From positions 9,431-33,430 of the forward strand of contig JAFIFP010000013.1 of assembly GCA_020831965.1 (NCBI GenBank): a DNA stretch of 24,000 bases, given 5' to 3'. Below are positions 752-12,804 of this stretch, in pieces. Each line of letters begins with the position of its first letter. Positions within the stretch are counted from its first letter, which is position 1. Both the position numbers and the translations under genes were made by a program. Source of the DNA: Idiomarina sp. Its GTDB lineage: Bacteria > Pseudomonadota > Gammaproteobacteria > Enterobacterales > Alteromonadaceae. Under the pieces are notes generated by a model, which was given only the letters and a program-made list of their open reading frames with translations, made no database searches and was not told the DNA's origin.

Positions 752-2248
752 GTGGCAGCAACACAACCGCTCACCACAATTCCAGGTCCTACCCTTGATG
801 TCCCAGCAAACACCGCTATTACTGCTGTGTTCACGGAAGATATGTTGGCATCAACAATCACTAGCACAAATTTCACCCTCACTTGTGAAACGCCTTGCGT
901 CGATCATGTGGGTGCCGTGTCTTATGTGTCGGGCTCAAAAAGTGCGGTGTTTACACCTGAAGAAAATCTTGAAGAAGGTGCAACTTACACAGCGATTATC
1001 TTTAGCGACGTTACTGACCTAGCCGGTAACCACTTAGCCGGAAATCAAGGTCCTGTGCTTAGCGCTAGCAACTATGTCTGGACCTTCACGACAGTGGCGG
1101 CTATCCCAGCAGCGAACATATTTGTTCAGTCCACCGACCCAGTTGATATGGGATTCCTTGAGACTTGTCCAAATACGACTATTAATGCCACGTTTGAGAT
1201 TCCTTCAGGAACTCGACTGAATCCAAACACAGTCAACAACATGACGTTCCTCGTGGTTGAGAACAACGACCCAGAAAATAGTGTTGTCGCTGAGTCTATT
1301 GCCCTTGATGTGGATACCGGCACCATCATGACCTTTATCCCGCAAACCCAGCTTGCTGAAAACATGACCTATCGTGTCACCATTAAAGGTGGGCCTGATG
1401 GCGTAAAAGACCTGATTGTCCCAGGCAATGAAATGCTTGAAGACTACGTTTGGACTTTTACAGCTGAAGAGCCTATCCAGAGCTGTCTATTGCCTGCCAA
1501 CCTCGGAACTGCGGCTCCTTTCGGTTCATTTGGCGGTAGTGCCGGAGTTACAAACCAAGGCTTGCTGACCGTTATTAATGGCGATTTGGGAACGACTGGA
1601 ACCTCTACCTTAGTGACAGGCTTCGTTTCTGAGCCAGGTTGTGAATACACAGTGACTACGCTCAATGAAGGTCAGGTGAATGGCAAAATCTTTACCGCCC
1701 CACCGGCGCCAACCGTTGCCTGTCCACAAGAAGGTACTGCGGCCACCGAAGCTGTTGCTTCACAAGCTCGCCTCGATGCTGAAGCAGCTTACATCTCAAT
1801 GGTCCCAGCGAACATGCCCGGCGGGCAGAGCCCTGGTAACGATAACCTCGGTAGTTTGACCTTAACTCCAGGTGTGTATACCGCGCCAAATGGTTCATTC
1901 CGCATTCATGGTGGTGACCTCACGCTCGACGCGCAAGGCAATCAGAATGCAGTGTGGGTCTTCCAAATGGCTACCACGCTGACAGTAGGTGGACCAGGCG
2001 CGGACTTCCCGCAAAGTGTCATCCTGATTAACGGCGCACAAGCCAAGAATATCTTCTGGCAAGTGGGTAGTGCGGCCACGATTAATGCCGCAGGTGGCGG
2101 CTTTATGAAAGGCACCATAATTGCTCAAGATAGCATCAGTTTTTCGACCGCTGACAACGTGAATATTGTGACCTTAGACGGTCGCGCGCTGTCTCTGACC
2201 GCGTCAGTCACAGTAGTAAACACTGTGATTAACGTACCCGCAGAGTAA
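752..2248 (+). CDS. Ig-like repeats + DUF3494 (ice-binding protein family) domain protein (C-terminal part of the interrupted gene; the GTG start at 752 is only nominal)
   Basis: Two further Ig-like repeats precede the DUF3494 domain, which starts at about nt 1500. DUF3494 signature motifs: LGTAAPFGSFGGSAGVTNQG..VINGDLGTTGTS, LGSLTLTPGVYT, GDLTLDAQGNQNAVWVFQ, ILINGAQAKNIFWQVGSAATI, KGTIIAQDSISF, LDGRALS. Confidence 0.8.
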   Translation: MAATQPLTTIPGPTLDVPANTAITAVFTEDMLASTITSTNFTLTCETPCVDHVGAVSYVSGSKSAVFTPEENLEEGATYTAIIFSDVTDLAGNHLAGNQGPVLSASNYVWTFTTVAAIPAANIFVQSTDPVDMGFLETCPNTTINATFEIPSGTRLNPNTVNNMTFLVVENNDPENSVVAESIALDVDTGTIMTFIPQTQLAENMTYRVTIKGGPDGVKDLIVPGNEMLEDYVWTFTAEEPIQSCLLPANLGTAAPFGSFGGSAGVTNQGLLTVINGDLGTTGTSTLVTGFVSEPGCEYTVTTLNEGQVNGKIFTAPPAPTVACPQEGTAATEAVASQARLDAEAAYISMVPANMPGGQSPGNDNLGSLTLTPGVYTAPNGSFRIHGGDLTLDAQGNQNAVWVFQMATTLTVGGPGADFPQSVILINGAQAKNIFWQVGSAATINAAGGGFMKGTIIAQDSISFSTADNVNIVTLDGRALSLTASVTVVNTVINVPAE

Positions 2249-7050: not shown

Positions 7051-7752
7051 CTAGATCAAAGTTACCCAATCCGGTAAGTACTGAATCGCTATAGTTTCAA
7101 GTACCTTGTCAAAACCAGTAAATATCATGGCTGCGATGAGCAATAACGCATAGCCCAGAATAAGTCGAGCAAGCTTCGCCGGTGCCCCCAGATCGCGTAT
7201 ACGCTTACCTGCAGCATAGCCAATACCAATGAGCGGTAACGCCGTGCCGACGCCGAACCCTAGCATCACTAAGAATGCCATTCCTAGGTTGCTTCCGGTT
7301 GAGGCTAACGCGATTGCCGCACCGAGTGTCGGCCCCACGCAAGGAAGCCAAACCAACCCCAAAGAACCGCCAATAACAAACTGAAAAGCTGGGTGCGACG
7401 AATCTCGTTCTACATTCCCGCTATTAGGTAGGAAGCTCAAACCTCGCGATAGCAAAATGGACATATATTGGTTGAGCCATGCATTGACTAAGGCCAACCC
7501 CATGAAAAGCATAAGGCCCGCAGCGAAGTAACGAAGGGCGTCTGGAGATAGTCCAGCATTCATGAACAAATAGGTGAGTATCGATCCACCCAATGCAAAA
7601 GTAAGTGCCAAGCCTCCCGCAAGGAACCATAACCCAGCCTTCGAGGCTCGCATAGCGGACGCAGTTACTGCCGGTACCATGGGCAAAACACAGGGTGATA
7701 GCAGGCTTAAAACGCCCGCTATCATCGCTAATGGAATGGCTGTCCATTCCAT
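7051..7752 (-). CDS. ccdA: Cytochrome c biogenesis protein CcdA / DsbD-family thiol:disulfide transmembrane electron transporter
   Basis: Six-TM profile with the two conserved Cys motifs LSPCVLPMVP and WLPCVGPTLG. The start lies 2 nt after the stop of the upstream thioredoxin gene (operon). Confidence 0.8.
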   Translation of the reverse strand: MEWTAIPLAMIAGVLSLLSPCVLPMVPAVTASAMRASKAGLWFLAGGLALTFALGGSILTYLFMNAGLSPDALRYFAAGLMLFMGLALVNAWLNQYMSILLSRGLSFLPNSGNVERDSSHPAFQFVIGGSLGLVWLPCVGPTLGAAIALASTGSNLGMAFLVMLGFGVGTALPLIGIGYAAGKRIRDLGAPAKLARLILGYALLLIAAMIFTGFDKVLETIAIQYLPDWVTLI

Positions 7753-7754
7753 GG

Positions 7755-8186
7755 TTATTCAGCGCCTATGTCATGTTTTGACAACTCGGAATTGATAACC
7801 CGCTGTCGAGTTTGGGCGACAGCAAACCAAAGCTGCTCTTCACCGCGATAAAGTGCGAACGTAGACTGACGCGGTGCGTTAAAGTAACTCACCCACTCTT
7901 TTTGAGAGTCGAAGTCTACTTCGAACACGACAATCTCACTGTCAGGATTGTTCTCAAAATAGCTGTTCAGTGCCCGTTGCTGTCTGGCGCACGTAGAGCA
8001 CCAAGTCGCATAAACGTCGACCAAGATTAACTTGTTCTCTTGTTGAGCGTTTCGAAATGCTGATTCAGTGAAAGGTTGTTTGAATTCCGCGAGATGTGTC
8101 GTCGACGCATTCACCGAGCTGATGTAGAGGAAAGTTCCAACGACGGCTAAGCTCGTCGCGGTAAGAATTGCGATAAGGTATTTCAT
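7755..8186 (-). CDS. Membrane-anchored/periplasmic thioredoxin-family protein (WCSTC active site)
   Basis: N-terminal signal/anchor MKYLIAILTATSLAVVGTFLYI. Thioredoxin-fold motif LVDVYATWCSTCARQ. GGAGG lies about 6 nt upstream of the ATG at 8186; the ORF-track start at 8198 lacks an RBS. Confidence 0.75.
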   Translation of the reverse strand: MKYLIAILTATSLAVVGTFLYISSVNASTTHLAEFKQPFTESAFRNAQQENKLILVDVYATWCSTCARQQRALNSYFENNPDSEIVVFEVDFDSQKEWVSYFNAPRQSTFALYRGEEQLWFAVAQTRQRVINSELSKHDIGAE

Positions 8187-8282
8187 AAAGACCTCCAAGG
8201 TAAGTTGACCTTGTCAGTCTATGGGAGCCGACCTAACTACACATTAACCAAAACACTTGTCTAGTGTACCGAAACAACGGCA

Positions 8283-9215
8283 TCAGGCATGGCGGTTACG
8301 ATATTCTCCTGGTGCACACGCTTCACGTTGTTTAAAAAAACGAATGAAAGCTGTGGCGGATTGGTATCCCAATGCCTCGGCGATTTGATCAAGAGTTTGT
8401 TGACTGTGAATAAGTAACTGCCGCGCTCGCTGCATCCTCAAAGTATCAACGATGGCTTTGGGGGACATAGACAATAACTTCTGACATCGATCAGCAAATG
8501 CACTGCGAGACAGATAAGCCAATGCTGCCATGCTATCCACCGACCAGTCCGCAGCGAGATCCGTCATCACAGCCACTAGTACTTTCCTCAACACGTCATC
8601 TCTCAGGGCCGCCAACAGACCACTCGTAATAGTTTCATCTGACAGAACTTGCCGAAGTAAGTGCAACACAATCACGTCACTCAACCGACTCACAGCAACC
8701 TGATAGCCCGGTCGCTGAGTGGCCGCTTCATCACGAACGATGGCGATGAGCTGGCTCAACTGTGTTGATTGTCGACTCGCCGGCAAGTGAATCACATCGG
8801 GCATGAGCTGAAACAAGGTTTCGGTGAGTGCGGAACCCACGTCAATGTCATAGCACACCAACCCGCGTTCTAGATGCGCTGGTATGCACAATGCGTCGAA
8901 GTCGTTTTGTGTTGTAGTCTCTGTGATGGGCTGATCACTCAACCAATGACGCAAGCCATGACTAAGAAACAAAGCATCACCCGCTACCATTTGAAACTGC
9001 TGCTCCAGTTGACCTGGCACAGCAACCCAAAGCTGCCCTTGCGTCACAACATGCAGGGCTGCCTTATTGGATTTCTCGGTAAGCAAGTTCCAATCTTCGC
9101 AAAATCCCGACTCAAAGTGCAATCGTGAACCAAAGGCCAGTTGTTCGAGTAACCTATCAACTCCCTCAGTCGTTTTAGTTGATTGCGCCGTCGTTTTGGT
9201 CATTGTGGTAATCAA
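8283..9215 (-). CDS. AraC-family transcriptional regulator (cupin-type N-domain + C-terminal double HTH)
   Basis: The C-terminal LSRSAFADRCQKLLSMSPKAIVDTLRMQRARQLL..SQQTLDQIAEALGYQSATAFIRFFKQ is a classic AraC HTH. The gene is divergent from the 9286 operon. The start could be 9215 or 9203. Confidence 0.85.
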   Translation of the reverse strand: MITTMTKTTAQSTKTTEGVDRLLEQLAFGSRLHFESGFCEDWNLLTEKSNKAALHVVTQGQLWVAVPGQLEQQFQMVAGDALFLSHGLRHWLSDQPITETTTQNDFDALCIPAHLERGLVCYDIDVGSALTETLFQLMPDVIHLPASRQSTQLSQLIAIVRDEAATQRPGYQVAVSRLSDVIVLHLLRQVLSDETITSGLLAALRDDVLRKVLVAVMTDLAADWSVDSMAALAYLSRSAFADRCQKLLSMSPKAIVDTLRMQRARQLLIHSQQTLDQIAEALGYQSATAFIRFFKQREACAPGEYRNRHA

Positions 9216-9285
9216 CCTAAATTACTAAAGTAGATATGAGAGCCACAAGTTTGCACCGCTAACCCATGCATTAAAAGGAAAAGTT

Positions 9286-9822
9286 ATGCCCGAGGATCTT
9301 TCCAGCAACAGTTTTACTGCACTAATCTCCGGGAATGTGGACCAGCTCGACCGTCTTCAAAATCTGATTAAAAACCTATCCAATGCCCAATACTCAAAGC
9401 CTTCGCGCCTGCCTCATCAGCCAAGCGTAGGACGACATGTCCGACATGTGATTGAGCACTATTTGCAGCTCTTGTTAAGCCTAACATCGGGCGTTCTCGA
9501 TTACAGTTTAAGGTCTCGAGATGTGCAATTTGAAGAATCCCTAGCAATGGCCATCGAGCAAATTTCAGAGATCCAAGAAAAACTCACTTCACTCTCTATC
9601 CCCTCTACAGGGTCTGCGGTCCAAAATCAGAACATTATTTTTCAGGCAAATAACCAGAAATTCTCGACAAATCTTGCGAGAGAGCTCGATTTCTTGAACA
9701 GTCATACGGTTCATCATTTGGCCTTGATACAAATTATTACGCAGGAATTTGGTATTCCAGCGGATCGCAGAACAGGCATTCACCCCACAACACTAGAGCA
9801 CCTCGACGCATGTGCACGATAA
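9286..9822 (+). CDS. DinB/YfiT-like superfamily protein (putative metal-dependent, possibly thiol-transferase-like)
   Basis: Four-helix-bundle-type pattern with a His triad: SVGRHVRHVIEHY and NSHTVHHLALI. RBS AAAGGAAAAG lies before the ATG. The assignment rests on motif recall only. Confidence 0.5.
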   Translation: MPEDLSSNSFTALISGNVDQLDRLQNLIKNLSNAQYSKPSRLPHQPSVGRHVRHVIEHYLQLLLSLTSGVLDYSLRSRDVQFEESLAMAIEQISEIQEKLTSLSIPSTGSAVQNQNIIFQANNQKFSTNLARELDFLNSHTVHHLALIQIITQEFGIPADRRTGIHPTTLEHLDACAR

Positions 9823-11414
9823 GCTGGTGCTTCGAGCACGAGCGTATGCACATTCTCGTGAATCGTGATGAGCAACGCGATCGTGATCATGCGCTCCCGC
9901 CCACACGCGTAACCAACAATACTGTCCAAGCAATGATGCCCATTGATCCTGAGGGTGGCGGGAGTTGGGTTGCCGCAAATGACCATGGGTTTGTGTTTTG
10001 CATTCTTAATCGCTATTCGCGCCTCGCATCAGTGGAACAGTCATGGCAAAGCCGGGGCGAACTGGTTCGTCAACTTTCTCAATGTGAGAACTGGAGCGCA
10101 GTACATGAGCTATTGCAACCTGGGAAGCTCGCACTCTATCGCCCATTCTCGCTGCTCGTATTTCATGGCAACAATGAACCCGAGCAATTTTCTTGGAGTA
10201 CCACTGTACTGACACAAACAGTAGCGCCTCGTTCTCCGGTCTCAAGCTCCAAAGTGTTGCCGCGATTCGTGCCTTGGATGAGAAAACGATGGGCCCAACT
10301 CACGTTACCGAAGCACCCGCAGCTTAGCGACCTAGAGAAGTATCACTTGGCGAGTCAACCCATTTGCGCGCACTTTGGCGTCAACATGAGTCGGCCAACG
10401 AGCCAAACCGTGAGTATCACCCGTGTTGAACTGACGACCTCGCAAGTAACCATGAGCTATTGGGCGGGTAACTTAACGGCTCTTAATACGGCGCAGAGTG
10501 AGTCAACTACATTGCAGCTGCGCGTTCCCCTGCATCTCTCCTCTTCTCATGTGAGTCGCATCAACTTAAAAACGTTAATGGCACAATATAATCCGAGTCT
10601 TGCTAAGGCTCTTCGTGGATGGCAATGGCGGTTGTTAACTTGGTTAGTTGATGAACCGGGGTTGAACCACCGGCTAACACAATTAGACAAATTACCAGTA
10701 GACACATTTTTCAGCCGTGCACTCAGTCAACTGCGAATAACCCCTGAGGTCCATGCCTTTCGCTGGCCAACCACGACCGCCCGACCAGTATTTCTTTGTA
10801 ATCATCCCACGGGCGGTATTGATGGTGTAATGACCCTCGCAATTCTCCTTAAGCGCTTCCCGAACCTCAAAGTCATTGCTAATGATGCACTCGCGACCAT
10901 CGAGCCCTTGGCCTCTAGAATCATTCCGATCAATGTGTTCGGCGACTCCCGTCAGTCCATACACAGGCTGATGAGCGCATTTTCTAGCGATGACCCGTTA
11001 TTGATTTTCCCCGCAGGAAAAACGGCACGATTTACTATAAAAGGGCAACTTGATGACGGCGATTGGCCTAAAAGTCTGGCAGCACTCATCCGGCGCTCTC
11101 AACGTCCTGTAGTTCCGCTGTTTATTCAGTCACGTAACTCGATACTGTTTTATTTGCTGCATGCACTTCGCCGCATGCTTCGCGTGTCGACTAATCTCGA
11201 AATGCTTCTCTTACCGAGAGAGACATTGAAGCCAGTGATTCGATCGCCGCAACTTTTTGTCGACTTGCCAATAAGTCCAACTGAAGTGGAAGCCTGTGCG
11301 GTAAATGATGAAAAACGCATCAACTGGTTACGCACTCGTTCATACTCGCTACCTAGCCAATTTGCCGAGGCCAATAATGACAAGTCCAGTTCCTCTTGCT
11401 CAAGCCGAAAATAG
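9810..11414 (+). CDS. Fusion protein: N-terminal NRDE (TANGO2/DUF833, Cys-Ntn-hydrolase-like) domain + C-terminal lysophospholipid/OlsA-type acyltransferase domain
   Basis: The protein starts with Met-Cys (MCTISW). The NRDE motif ILVNRDEQRDR is at nt 9861..9872, followed by IDPEGGGSWVAANDHGFVFCILN. C-terminal half: FLCNHPTGGIDG (His codon 10803, Asp codon 10821) and LLIFPAGKTAR acyltransferase blocks. The ATG overlaps the upstream gene by 13 nt (ATGTGCACGATAA). Confidence 0.7.
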   Translation: MCTISWCFEHERMHILVNRDEQRDRDHALPPTRVTNNTVQAMMPIDPEGGGSWVAANDHGFVFCILNRYSRLASVEQSWQSRGELVRQLSQCENWSAVHELLQPGKLALYRPFSLLVFHGNNEPEQFSWSTTVLTQTVAPRSPVSSSKVLPRFVPWMRKRWAQLTLPKHPQLSDLEKYHLASQPICAHFGVNMSRPTSQTVSITRVELTTSQVTMSYWAGNLTALNTAQSESTTLQLRVPLHLSSSHVSRINLKTLMAQYNPSLAKALRGWQWRLLTWLVDEPGLNHRLTQLDKLPVDTFFSRALSQLRITPEVHAFRWPTTTARPVFLCNHPTGGIDGVMTLAILLKRFPNLKVIANDALATIEPLASRIIPINVFGDSRQSIHRLMSAFSSDDPLLIFPAGKTARFTIKGQLDDGDWPKSLAALIRRSQRPVVPLFIQSRNSILFYLLHALRRMLRVSTNLEMLLLPRETLKPVIRSPQLFVDLPISPTEVEACAVNDEKRINWLRTRSYSLPSQFAEANNDKSSSSCSSRK

Positions 11415-12267
11415 AGACCAACTGCGTCACGAGTTGACCCAGTTAACGCCACTTTCGCATGTCCGTGGATTGCAAGTTTTTACTTTTAAAGCGGAGGAAG
11501 CACCGACAGTAATGAGAGAGGTCGGTCGTATTCGAGAGCTGATTTTTCGAGACGCCGGCGCAGGAAGGAACCTTGAGCGAGATCTCGATCCACTTGATTT
11601 TGGCCCCAACTGTTATCAACAGCTCTTAGTATGGGACCCAAAGCGGTCCGAAGTGGTTGCTCTGTATCGATTCAAATTGGGGGTTGAGGCAATTCAAGAT
11701 CTGCCATCCCTAAGAACTACGCAGCTATTCAATTACACCGAAGAATTCAAGGCGAATATTCTTCCCTTTGCCATAGAGCTTGGCCGTTCGGTCGTGAATC
11801 ATGAGGCTAAAGCAGCACGTTTCGGCTTCTTTGCGTTGTGGGTTGGACTCGAAGCGCTATTACACAAATACCCTCACGTCGAATTCTTTTTTGGCAATGT
11901 GTCACTCTACAAAACTCTGGGGCAAGCTCCGTTAAATCTGTTAGTGAGCTTTTGTCAGCTGCACTATCGACCACCCACACGTTTTCTTGCAGCGAAGCCA
12001 GAGCTCATTCTACACGCTGAGTGGCCAAATAATCAGAACTACCTCAATGCCAATGCTCGAGAACGAATTCAAGCACTACAAGGTCACTTAGACCACTACC
12101 ACATCAAAATTCCCAAAATACTGCAATCCTACTTGTCCTTAAGTACGGACATCTGGTTCGACGACGCAGCCCGCGACGCGGACTTTGGCGAAGCTTATGA
12201 GCTCAGTATTATTGTGCCCGTTAAGGCCATAGCGAAAGACCGCAGACTCAAGTTGGCGGGGGATTAA
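11377..12267 (+). CDS. OlsB/GlsB-like GNAT-fold N-acyltransferase (N-acyl amino acid / lyso-aminolipid synthase family, so-called hemolysin-like)
   Basis: Family blocks: IRELIFRDAGAG...DLDPLDF..CYQQLLVWD...VVALYRF and ELGRSVVNHE...FALWVGLEALL....FFFGNVSL. GAGG lies 6 nt before the ATG at 11377 (alternative ATG at 11305). The gene overlaps the upstream gene end at 11414. Confidence 0.7.
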   Translation: MTSPVPLAQAENRDQLRHELTQLTPLSHVRGLQVFTFKAEEAPTVMREVGRIRELIFRDAGAGRNLERDLDPLDFGPNCYQQLLVWDPKRSEVVALYRFKLGVEAIQDLPSLRTTQLFNYTEEFKANILPFAIELGRSVVNHEAKAARFGFFALWVGLEALLHKYPHVEFFFGNVSLYKTLGQAPLNLLVSFCQLHYRPPTRFLAAKPELILHAEWPNNQNYLNANARERIQALQGHLDHYHIKIPKILQSYLSLSTDIWFDDAARDADFGEAYELSIIVPVKAIAKDRRLKLAGD

Positions 12268-12414
12268 CTTCTGTTTTAAAAGCTTAAAGGCTGATTAAGA
12301 GGATATCGAGGCCGAAAGTTTCCGAGAAGATTTGTCTTATTGTGGTCAACTTTAGGTTGCGCTGCGTAGTGGATGGACAGATTAACTTTATGCTCTTACC
12401 CAAGGAACTACCAA

Positions 12415-12804
12415 ATGACGCATTTACTGACGACTTTGTTCATTGTGATGCTCTTGCCAATACTGGCTAAAGCACCGTTGGTAATGATGTTGATTAAGCA
12501 AAAGGGGGGCTATGACAATAACAACCCTAGGGCGCAGCAGCGCAATCTGAAAGGATTTGGTGAGCGCGCCACTGCAGCTCATTACAATAGTTTTGAAGCA
12601 CTGATCATGTTTGCTTCAGCGGTACTTATCACGGGCTTGTCAGGCGACATTGACCAAGGCAGCATCGCGTTGGCATACACTTTTGTTATTGCACGCGTGG
12701 CCTATCTGTTCTGTTATTGGTACGACAAAGCCACACTGCGCTCTTGGGTCTGGTTAGTGGGTGTCATTGCTCTCTTTGTCATGGCGGCTCGAGCCATTTG
12801 GTAA
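12415..12804 (+). CDS. MAPEG-family membrane protein (glutathione-transferase-like superfamily)
   Basis: About 130 aa with 3-4 TM segments. Characteristic segment: GYDNNNPRAQQRNLKGFGERATAAHYNSFEALIMFA. AAGGA lies 8 nt before the ATG at 12415; the ORF-track start at 12373 adds a non-hydrophobic extension. Confidence 0.7.
   Translation: MTHLLTTLFIVMLLPILAKAPLVMMLIKQKGGYDNNNPRAQQRNLKGFGERATAAHYNSFEALIMFASAVLITGLSGDIDQGSIALAYTFVIARVAYLFCYWYDKATLRSWVWLVGVIALFVMAARAIW

Follow-up and report, generated by a model that had tools for sequence, protein, structure and literature searches.

Here, we describe an operon in a 24,000-nucleotide (nt) stretch of DNA from a metagenome-assembled genome (MAG) of Idiomarina sp. 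(hereafter the window, meaning the whole stretch that was analyzed), which very probably encodes an aminolipid synthase together with a dedicated accessory module made up of a DinB-like protein and an NRDE domain of the TANGO2 family. The operon comprises three genes on the forward strand, namely a first gene for a DinB-like protein of 178 amino acids (aa) (9286–9822), a gene for a 534-aa fusion of an NRDE domain with an O-acyltransferase (9810–11414), and a GNAT-type N-acyltransferase gene that ends at 12267 and starts at either 11305 (320 aa) or 11377 (296 aa). The start at 11377 is the better one because it is preceded by a GAGG ribosome-binding site and because the alignments with homologues begin at residue 1–6 of the resulting protein. 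The genes overlap by 13 nt (ATGTGCACGATAA) between the DinB-like gene and the fusion gene and by 38 nt (start 11377) or 110 nt (start 11305) between the fusion gene and the GNAT gene, and 70 base pairs (bp) separate the DinB-like gene from a divergent AraC-family gene (8283–9215, reverse strand, 310 aa). An original prediction, made from the sequence of this DNA, had proposed translational coupling of the three genes with these overlaps and had noted the divergent gap, all of which are present. The three genes are also co-conserved in related genomes and retain the overlaps in the close clade, and the four domain assignments made at that time were upheld by Pfam and NCBIfam searches as well as by structure models.

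A split OlsF-type aminolipid synthase

The O-acyltransferase domain of the fusion (10560–11414, forward strand, aa ~251–534) is of the GlsA/OlsF-N type. It matches Pfam Acyltransf_2 (PF19576, 124 bits, aa 257–514) and PF01553 (27.9 bits), and its motif N331-H332-P-T-G-G-x-D338-G339, which contains the NHxxxxxD catalytic motif of such enzymes, is invariant in 20 homologues. The GNAT protein matches Acetyltransf_5 (PF13444, 34.7 bits, cut-off 22.4). When compared with the NCBIfam models, the O-acyltransferase half scores 146 bits against GlsA (positions 2–266 of 267, cut-off 260) and 113 bits against OlsF (cut-off 620), and the GNAT protein scores 178.6 bits against GlsB (positions 7–297 of 303, cut-off 300) and 158 bits against OlsF (cut-off 620), each OlsF match covering the corresponding half of that model. 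No equivalog cut-off was reached for GlsA, GlsB or OlsF; the locus is therefore classed as related to the OlsF/GlsAB family, and no head group is assigned to its product. At the level of individual proteins, the O-acyltransferase domain is 30% identical (E = 7e-22) to the N-terminal half of OlsF from Vibrio cholerae (contig L080) and the GNAT protein is 32% identical (E = 6e-24) to its C-terminal half. Both the family models and the identity to V. cholerae OlsF bear out the earlier view that the pairing of an OlsB/GlsB-type with an OlsA/GlsA-type enzyme marks an aminolipid synthase.

Judging from these matches, the operon very probably encodes an OlsF-type synthase in split form, whose product would be an acyloxyacyl amino-acid lipid: the GNAT protein is predicted to N-acylate an amino acid with a 3-hydroxy fatty acid, and the Acyltransf_2 domain is predicted to add a second fatty acid by esterifying that hydroxyl. 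For the head group, which cannot be read from the sequence, ornithine and glycine are the obvious candidates. The same two domains (PF19576/PF01553 and PF13444), in the OlsF order, are found in OlsF of Serratia proteamaculans and V. cholerae and in GlsA/GlsB of Bacteroides. Unlike OlsF, however, the system in the window has its two activities on separate, overlapping genes and carries an NRDE domain of ~250 aa in front of the O-acyltransferase. The synthase is a new divergent member of a known family, whereas the NRDE::acyltransferase fusion and the DinB/NRDE module are uncharacterized.

The NRDE domain and its relatives

The N-terminal domain of the fusion (9810–10472, forward strand, aa 1–~221) is a putative cysteine N-terminal-nucleophile (Cys-Ntn) enzyme. 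It is joined to the O-acyltransferase by a linker (10473–10559, forward strand, aa ~222–250) that is variable in length and poorly conserved in an alignment of 20 fusion proteins (A1) and that has a lower predicted local distance difference test (pLDDT) score at residues 221–250. Pfam PF05742 matches aa 1–134 with 41.2 bits (cut-off 22.6), the match covering profile positions 1–140 of 257, that is, only the N-terminal half of the profile. An MCT(L/V/I)SW motif and the NRDE motif are conserved both in the fusion family (A1) and in standalone homologues. More specifically, the 20 fusion proteins show no or hardly any variation at M1-C2, N18-R19-D20-E21 and N67; conservation reaches at least 90% for Cys2, R19-D20-E21 and N67 across 32 homologues, most of them standalone proteins; and R82 is at least 90% conserved in fused and free NRDE proteins alike. 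The active-site residues of the domain thus appear, from their sequence, to be intact, and in the fusions NRDE invariably comes first, which fits the requirement of an N-terminal nucleophile.

An AlphaFold2 model of the fusion, based on the 20-sequence alignment, is confident and consists of two domains (pLDDT 80.5, predicted template modeling score 0.83). The top Foldseek matches in the PDB all concern the N-terminal domain and include human TANGO2 (9bwa and 8sv7, E = 1e-8), the bacterial NRDE protein CV2077 (3gvz, target-normalized template modeling (TM) score 0.66), penicillin V acylase, bile-salt hydrolases, and acyl-CoA:isopenicillin N acyltransferase (root-mean-square deviation 3.8 Å). 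A profile search of the PDB also led from the NRDE domain to TANGO2 (E = 0.005). These models suggest that the domain has a four-layer αββα Cys-Ntn fold like that of TANGO2. Human TANGO2 has the same family, fold, Met-Cys2 N-terminus and NRDE motif, with ~15% identity over the structural alignment; in contrast to the human protein, the bacterial domain occurs joined to an acyltransferase and in company with a DinB-like protein. It has been reported that human TANGO2 binds C16 and C18 acyl-coenzyme A (acyl-CoA) through its NRDE motif (PMC11867700), and it has also been suggested that the protein hydrolyzes fatty-acid derivatives as a Cys-Ntn enzyme (PMC13044924). Established Cys-Ntn enzymes, such as bile-salt hydrolase, penicillin V acylase, acyl-CoA:isopenicillin N acyltransferase, acid ceramidase and NAAA, have the αββα fold and the N-terminal cysteine in common with the NRDE domain but belong to a different Pfam family and are only 10–13% identical to it. 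They act on N-acyl amides or acyl-CoA with lipophilic acyl groups (PMC13044924), and the GNAT protein of the operon is predicted to make the same class of bond.

The fusion is rare: clustering at 90% identity leaves ~27 full-length clusters among 5.8 billion proteins. One public entry (P0001, 522 aa, annotated as 'NRDE family protein', from an Idiomarina sp. MAG) is an exact copy of it but starts at Met13 and therefore omits the conserved Met-Cys2-Thr N-terminus with the putative nucleophile (9810–9845 of the window); the 534-aa open reading frame (ORF) from 9810 is the version supported by homologues. At the other end of the protein, the C-terminal tail (11330–11414; loci L001–L013) terminates with a conserved …(K)PSCSRR(AG) sequence in the gammaproteobacterial clade. 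This sequence falls inside the overlap with the beginning of the next gene, and its conservation may be due to the overlapping frame and not to a function of the tail.

The DinB-like protein

The DinB-like protein reaches Pfam DinB_2 only marginally (25.1 bits, cut-off 24.8) and stays below the cut-off of the DinB family (21.3 bits, cut-off 23), and many members of its family are without a precomputed Pfam match. PDB sequence searches with the protein and with a profile returned nothing meaningful, and only fold comparison placed it. The best PDB match of its AlphaFold2 model (pLDDT 89.4) is YfiT (1rxq, E = 1.5e-4, TM score 0.65), followed by many further DinB-family structures, so that the model points to a YfiT-like four-helix-bundle DinB fold. 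A word-indexed homologue search with the protein alone returned only the protein itself, and a profile built from locus-derived sequences was used instead; the family comprises 1,779 cluster representatives at E ≤ 1e-30.

In the family alignments (A2 and A3), R53, H54, Y73, R76, R78, (E83), R132, E133, H140, H143 and H144 are invariant and H51 is nearly so. The histidines fit a pattern of one histidine in an early helix and HxxxH in the last helix, an arrangement that may resemble the metal ligands of YfiT. The four-helix bundle and, putatively, the invariant histidine set with its H…HxxHH pattern are features in common with the YfiT/BstA-type DinB metalloenzymes (bacillithiol and mycothiol S-transferases) and with the DinB domain of EgtB. 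What distinguishes the DinB-like family from these proteins is the cluster of invariant arginines (R53, R76, R78 and R132) and the fact that it is always tied to NRDE and/or aminolipid acyltransferase genes. In addition, EgtB has a second domain that completes its active site, whereas no such domain is present in the 178-aa protein. DinB/YfiT enzymes activate thiols, and both CoA and phosphopantetheine are thiols.

Distribution and gene neighborhoods of the DinB/NRDE pair

Related loci were collected in two samples. A scan seeded with the fusion family, with one genome per species, gave 79 loci (the genome sample), and a second, independent scan of metagenomes, seeded only with the DinB-like family, gave 80 loci (the metagenome sample); DinB neighbors were counted on stop-to-stop translations. 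A fusion-type gene is present in 29 loci of the genome sample, 28 of which encode an intact NRDE::acyltransferase and one of which (L027) has a degenerate NRDE half. They belong to Alkalimonas, Arsukibacterium, Alishewanella, Rheinheimera, Aliidiomarina, Bacterioplanes, Salinispirillum, Natronospirillum and Balneolales/Cyclonatronaceae, and many of these taxa and samples are, judging from their names, haloalkaline. The DinB-like gene lies directly upstream in 21 of the 29 fusion-type loci and a GlsB-like gene directly downstream in 23 of the 27 that could be evaluated, and the three forward-strand genes are thus co-conserved in related genomes. When all NRDE loci are considered, a DinB-like gene is found at 57 of 77, mostly directly upstream, and the same 13-nt overlap (ATGTGCAC) recurs in 27 loci from several phyla.

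The association with aminolipid synthases extends to loci in which NRDE is a protein of its own. An aminolipid synthase gene lies within 6 kilobases (kb) at 17 of the 48 standalone-NRDE loci of the genome sample: it is of the OlsF type in Vibrio, Enterovibrio, Pseudoalteromonas, Kiritimatiellae and Opitutales and of the OlsB/OlsA type (PF13444 and PF01553) in Gemmatimonadota and Thermoanaerobaculia, and in Salinispira an Acyltransf_2 gene occurs alone. In the metagenome sample, NRDE is encoded on the same contig as the DinB-like protein in 51 of 66 evaluable cases, and a synthase gene is present on 41 of the 80 contigs (14 of the 20 that have at least 3 kb on both sides). About a dozen metagenome loci have the DinB-like gene between separate O-acyltransferase and GNAT genes, an arrangement that was confirmed at the ORF level in L116.

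Domain fusions provide a further line of evidence. Besides the NRDE::acyltransferase fusion, a 486-aa DinB::acyltransferase fusion without an NRDE domain is encoded in Natronospirillum operosum (L030, 5398–6858), and a 442-aa protein (P0306) joins a PlsC-type acyltransferase (PF01553) to a DinB domain in the reverse order. These three independent fusions are all to the O-acyltransferase and never to the GNAT protein. In a related MAG (L027, 5848–7341), the NRDE half is degenerate, with no Cys2 and with the NRDE motif changed to SRDS. Since NRDE has been lost or has degenerated in Natronospirillum while DinB has been kept, it appears that the DinB-like protein stays with the O-acyltransferase when NRDE decays. 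The module is spread over Gammaproteobacteria, Balneolales, Verrucomicrobiota, Kiritimatiellae, Gemmatimonadota, Acidobacteriota and Spirochaetes. DinB-like and NRDE genes are therefore a widespread gene pair that is often translationally coupled and is found repeatedly beside OlsF- or OlsB/OlsA-type genes. The original prediction had regarded the NRDE domain and the leading DinB-like gene as unusual parts of this one locus, a view that does not hold given this distribution and the occurrence of the same four families in vca0646–0649 of V. cholerae.

In many phyla, a larger conserved cluster surrounds the DinB-like and NRDE genes (L072, L091, L097, L101, L157, L080 5198–10941 and L116 2537–7546). 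Its members are a VTT/DedA membrane domain and a membrane-anchored ATP-grasp-like enzyme, a secreted YHS protein, and a DoxX/MauE-like membrane protein, to which the clusters of Gemmatimonadota and Acidobacteriota add a Rieske and ferric-reductase membrane protein and an uncharacterized protein of ~250–320 aa. These larger clusters adjoin OlsB/OlsA-type or OlsF-type genes. The VTT and ATP-grasp genes accompany the pair at 26 of 48 loci of the genome sample and at 16 of the 20 metagenome loci with at least 3 kb on both sides. L116 encodes the two domains as one protein of 603 aa, and L050 encodes them as one protein of 869 aa that also has an α/β-hydrolase. Some clusters reach eight genes, such as that of L072 (Rieske/ferric-reductase, c20, OlsB, OlsA, DinB, NRDE, VTT and ATP-grasp). 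The 24-kb window contains no ATP-grasp, VTT, YHS or Rieske gene.

The counterpart in Vibrio cholerae

On the V. cholerae contig L080, genes for a VTT/DedA protein, an ATP-grasp-like enzyme, a DinB-like protein (180 aa), an NRDE protein (248 aa), a YHS protein, a 149-aa membrane protein and OlsF (581 aa) follow one another. The published 'vca0649 upstream' reporter primer has its match at a distance of 258 bp in front of the DinB-like gene, exactly as described (PMC12186959), and vca0649 therefore corresponds to the DinB-like gene and, by gene order, vca0648 to the NRDE gene. Two published primers matched L080 at the expected positions with 2–3 mismatches, and three others had no match within 3 mismatches, the strain being divergent. 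Another contig, L079 (titled Vibrio cholerae BI-5D), was rejected as the vca0646 locus because none of three published primers matched it within 3 mismatches; it has a Vibrio-type cluster whose OlsF differs from that of L080, and it may not be V. cholerae sensu stricto.

All four families of the window match their Vibrio counterparts (E from 3e-14 to 4e-33), and vca0649–vca0646 has them in the same order on one strand, namely DinB-like, NRDE, O-acyltransferase and GNAT, although the proteins are only 24–32% identical. The two systems differ in that NRDE is free and the two acyltransferases are fused in Vibrio, whereas NRDE is fused to the split-off O-acyltransferase in the window; moreover, Vibrio has YHS and DoxX/MauE-like genes inserted and VTT and ATP-grasp genes upstream, which the window lacks. 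VCA0646 alone makes ornithine lipid in Escherichia coli and is responsible for ornithine-lipid synthesis at low salinity (PMC12186959). As OlsF alone is sufficient in E. coli, the DinB/NRDE pair is accessory rather than required. All four genes vca0646–0649 are activated by HapR as an operon, and overexpression of vca0646–0647 leads to cell death (bioRxiv 10.1101/2024.09.23.614608). The functions of all four proteins were called unknown in that preprint, and VCA0646 has since been assigned by the OlsF study (bioRxiv 10.1101/2024.09.23.614608; PMC12186959).

Literature searches (TANGO2 with aminolipid, DinB with TANGO2, and DinB with ornithine lipid) revealed no paper in the library searched that joins TANGO2 or DinB with aminolipids. 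They agree with the earlier statement that no aminolipid pathway of this composition is known to have been described. The same four families are found in a published, functionally unexplained operon of V. cholerae. A 2026 review of aminolipids lists three routes of synthesis and five modifications and mentions no turnover enzyme and no DinB or NRDE protein. As the module is conserved across phyla and is absent from that review, it would mark a missing piece of the aminolipid pathway.

Proposed function of the module and alternative explanations

We favor, with a probability of roughly 0.4, the reading that the module handles the amide- or thioester-linked fatty acyl group of a lyso-aminolipid or aminolipid, in editing, remodeling or turnover. 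A role at the acyl linkage is favored because Cys-Ntn enzymes cleave or transfer lipophilic N-acyl groups, TANGO2 binds acyl-CoA, the GNAT protein is predicted to make an N-acyl amide, and the partner fused to NRDE is predicted to consume an acyl thioester. The module would not be needed for making the lipid. Instead, the free N-terminal Cys2 of NRDE would attack the amide of a lyso-aminolipid or aminolipid, or an acyl thioester, to form an acyl-enzyme that would then be hydrolyzed or passed on; as a consequence, excess lyso-lipid would be removed, or the lipid would be remodeled or turned over under altered conditions. The DinB-like protein, a putative metalloprotein, would work alongside NRDE on the same substrate, and its invariant arginines suggest binding of a head-group carboxylate or of a phosphopantetheine or CoA moiety. 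In the close clade, the divergent AraC protein would probably control the operon. A bolder form of the proposal, which we put forward only tentatively, is that the DinB-like and NRDE proteins may together be the first enzymes known to deacylate, transacylate or remodel aminolipids in bacteria. In this form, Cys2 of NRDE would yield an acyl-enzyme from the N-acyl amide or an acyl thioester, and the putative DinB metalloprotein would resolve or direct it. By extension, members of the TANGO2 family, the human protein among them, may hydrolyze or transacylate lipids of the N-acyl-amide or acyl-thioester kind.

Several observations weigh against a role in acyl editing or turnover. A hydrolase fused to the very synthase whose product it would undo is unusual, and the catalytic roles of the bacterial NRDE domain and of this DinB subfamily are themselves putative. 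Of the standalone pairs in the genome sample, 31 of 48 have no synthase gene within 6 kb, and eight Balneolales fusion loci have no DinB gene (two of them with too little upstream sequence to judge). As NRDE or DinB can each be found with the acyltransferase alone, an obligate complex is not needed. The authors of the TANGO2 study report that acyltransferase activity was ruled out for the human protein (PMC11867700). In V. cholerae, a separate, salt-responsive low-salt promoter serves vca0646, whereas the vca0649 promoter fusion was weak and not salt-responsive (PMC12186959), and vca0648 and vca0649 were dispensable for cell death, the only phenotype tested (bioRxiv 10.1101/2024.09.23.614608). 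Finally, the frequent VTT/DedA and ATP-grasp, YHS, DoxX/MauE-like and Rieske/ferric-reductase neighbors hint at head-group or redox chemistry more than at plain turnover.

One rather unlikely alternative is that the module supplies acyl donors: NRDE, helped by the DinB-like protein, would capture an acyl group from acyl-CoA, possibly as a Cys2 thioester, and hand it to the fused O-acyltransferase, thereby feeding the synthase. All three fusions being to the O-acyltransferase and none to the GNAT protein would suit such a relay, as would the thiol activation generally known for DinB/YfiT enzymes, with the invariant arginines possibly binding the phosphates of CoA or phosphopantetheine. The acyl-CoA binding of human TANGO2 (PMC11867700) and the appearance of acyl-CoA:isopenicillin N acyltransferase, the closest well-understood relative of this fold that uses a CoA thioester, among the best structural matches (3.8 Å) point the same way. 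On the other hand, OlsF-type enzymes work without the module in E. coli (PMC12186959), the absence of acyltransferase activity reported for TANGO2 (PMC11867700) counts against a transfer step, PlsC-type acyltransferases bind thioester donors directly and have no obvious need of an extra carrier, and some lineages keep the acyltransferase with just one of the two proteins. A modification of the head group or acyl chain, in which DinB with a putative metal center and NRDE as an amidase would convert the primary aminolipid into a more complex, undescribed lipid, likewise has a low probability in our estimation. The same applies to its extended form for other genomes, in which the pair would work with the VTT/DedA–ATP-grasp proteins, for example in the ATP-dependent amidation of a head-group carboxylate followed by trimming. 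The frequency of VTT and ATP-grasp genes beside the pair (including the VTT::ATP-grasp fusions) and eight-gene clusters such as that of L072 speak for it, and a ligase, a DinB domain and an Ntn amidohydrolase together presumably recall EgtA/EgtB/EgtC of ergothioneine synthesis, a parallel that we treat only as a lead. The ATP-grasp enzyme is a candidate for such an amidation, e.g., for the transfer of taurine in cerilipin, which is ATP-dependent and whose gene is still unknown (PMC12971839). However, the window keeps DinB and NRDE without any ATP-grasp, VTT, YHS or Rieske gene, so that the pair must have a function independent of those genes; the DinB-like protein has no second domain to complete an EgtB-type active site; and no modified ornithine lipid was reported in V. 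cholerae under conditions that induce VCA0646, as far as thin-layer chromatography, the only method used, can tell (PMC12186959).

It is improbable that the DinB-like and NRDE proteins are merely neighbors of the lipid genes, that is, a pair for thiol, redox or xenobiotic stress (resembling a DinB-type S-transferase followed by an amidase) that shares regulation or location with them; equally improbable is the corresponding proposal for the window, that the pair and the thioredoxin- and DsbD-like genes are perhaps controlled together by the RclR-like AraC protein. The YfiT-type fold of the DinB-like protein, the distant likeness of the AraC protein to RclR, its position next to thioredoxin and DsbD-like genes, the standalone pairs with no synthase nearby, and the YHS and DoxX/MauE-like neighbors, which suggest metal or thiol chemistry, are all in keeping with such a view. 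It is difficult to reconcile, though, with three independent domain fusions to aminolipid O-acyltransferases, with a DinB gene lodged between two synthase genes in about a dozen loci, and with an association that covers two unrelated synthase types (OlsF and OlsB/OlsA) in at least five phyla; furthermore, the thioredoxin/DsbD flank is replaced in six close-clade loci in which the order AraC–DinB–NRDE::acyltransferase–GNAT stays. Less probable still is the suggestion that the product is not a membrane lipid at all and that the GNAT protein and the acyltransferase make a secreted or signaling N-acyl amino acid, which NRDE would mature or degrade. Some sources annotate homologues as 'putative hemolysin', and the NCBIfam scores lie under the equivalog cut-offs, yet the two halves match the GlsA and GlsB models and the corresponding parts of the OlsF model over almost their whole length, both also align with a proven ornithine-lipid synthase (VCA0646), and the operon has the O-acyltransferase, with an unbroken catalytic motif, by which a lyso form would become a bilayer-forming diacyl lipid.

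In humans, TANGO2 deficiency leads to severe metabolic disease. The biochemical function of the protein is disputed, with heme transfer, acyl-CoA binding and Cys-Ntn hydrolysis all under discussion; acyl-CoA binding has been demonstrated (PMC11867700), and hydrolysis is a proposal (PMC13044924). The bacterial fusions and neighborhoods tie the TANGO2 family to enzymes of N-acyl/O-acyl amino-acid lipids and suggest concrete substrates, by which a contested function becomes directly testable in bacteria. If the bolder form of the proposal is true, the bacterial operon would be an experimental system that reveals the substrate class of TANGO2. In addition, vca0646–0649 gains a functional frame, in an operon that has been linked to low-salinity ornithine-lipid synthesis, polymyxin tolerance and quorum-sensing-controlled cell death.

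The AraC regulator and flanking genes

The AraC-family protein matches Pfam Cupin_6 (110 bits) and HTH_18 (76 bits). Against the NCBIfam RclR model it scores 92.6 bits with a cut-off of 400, so that it is not an RclR equivalog and is only distantly RclR-like. The true start of its gene may be the ATG at 9203. The divergent intergenic region (9216–9285) is, from its position alone, the presumed promoter/operator region; an AAGGA ribosome-binding site can be read before 9286, and a consensus scan of these 70 bp found no sigma-70-like promoter. A divergent AraC gene lies upstream of the DinB operon in 15 close-clade genome loci and in the metagenome locus L082, and it persists while the outer flanks differ among the close-clade loci. 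In 10 of the 15, one or two genes, including one for an HD-domain protein, stand between AraC and the DinB-like gene: in L001 (3887–5290) and eight or nine further close-clade loci (Alkalimonas, Arsukibacterium and Alishewanella), an uncharacterized 150-aa protein and an HD-domain (HD_5, HD-GYP-like) protein are inserted, both genes being on the operon strand. The AraC protein probably controls the operon in the close gammaproteobacterial clade only. Its membership in the system is probable for that clade, in which it is co-conserved; outside the clade, only two or three distant cases were seen.

Directly downstream of the AraC gene and on the same strand, a thioredoxin-like gene (147 aa) and a gene for a protein with a DsbD transmembrane domain (233 aa) occupy 7051–8198 (reverse strand). 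The AraC/thioredoxin/DsbD trio is retained in about half of the close-clade loci, with other genes in that place in the remainder, and the distantly RclR-like regulator may govern this redox pair, either in addition to the lipid operon or in its place.

Downstream of the operon, a MAPEG gene (12373–12804, forward strand, 143 aa, Pfam MAPEG 87 bits) begins 105 nt after the GNAT gene by the ORF call; the distance of 147 nt given earlier is obtained only if the ATG at 12415 is taken as its start. No terminator was detected in a scan between the GNAT and MAPEG genes, and read-through is therefore possible, although the association is local to the genome of the window: no MAPEG match was found in 161 related loci (79 genome, 2 Vibrio and 80 metagenome). 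MAPEG was accordingly rejected as a component of the system and does not represent the additional thiol-transferase part that it had been thought to be, and the argument that two thiol-transferase superfamilies meet at this locus loses its second leg.

An anti-phage defense system was also rejected, with zero PADLOC hits. Among the genes of the window unrelated to the operon, the one at 752–2245 (forward strand) encodes a 498-aa protein with Big_5 Ig-like domains and an ice-binding-like domain (PF11999, 181 bits), and it is followed by a gene for an OmpA-family outer-membrane protein with two OmpA domains.

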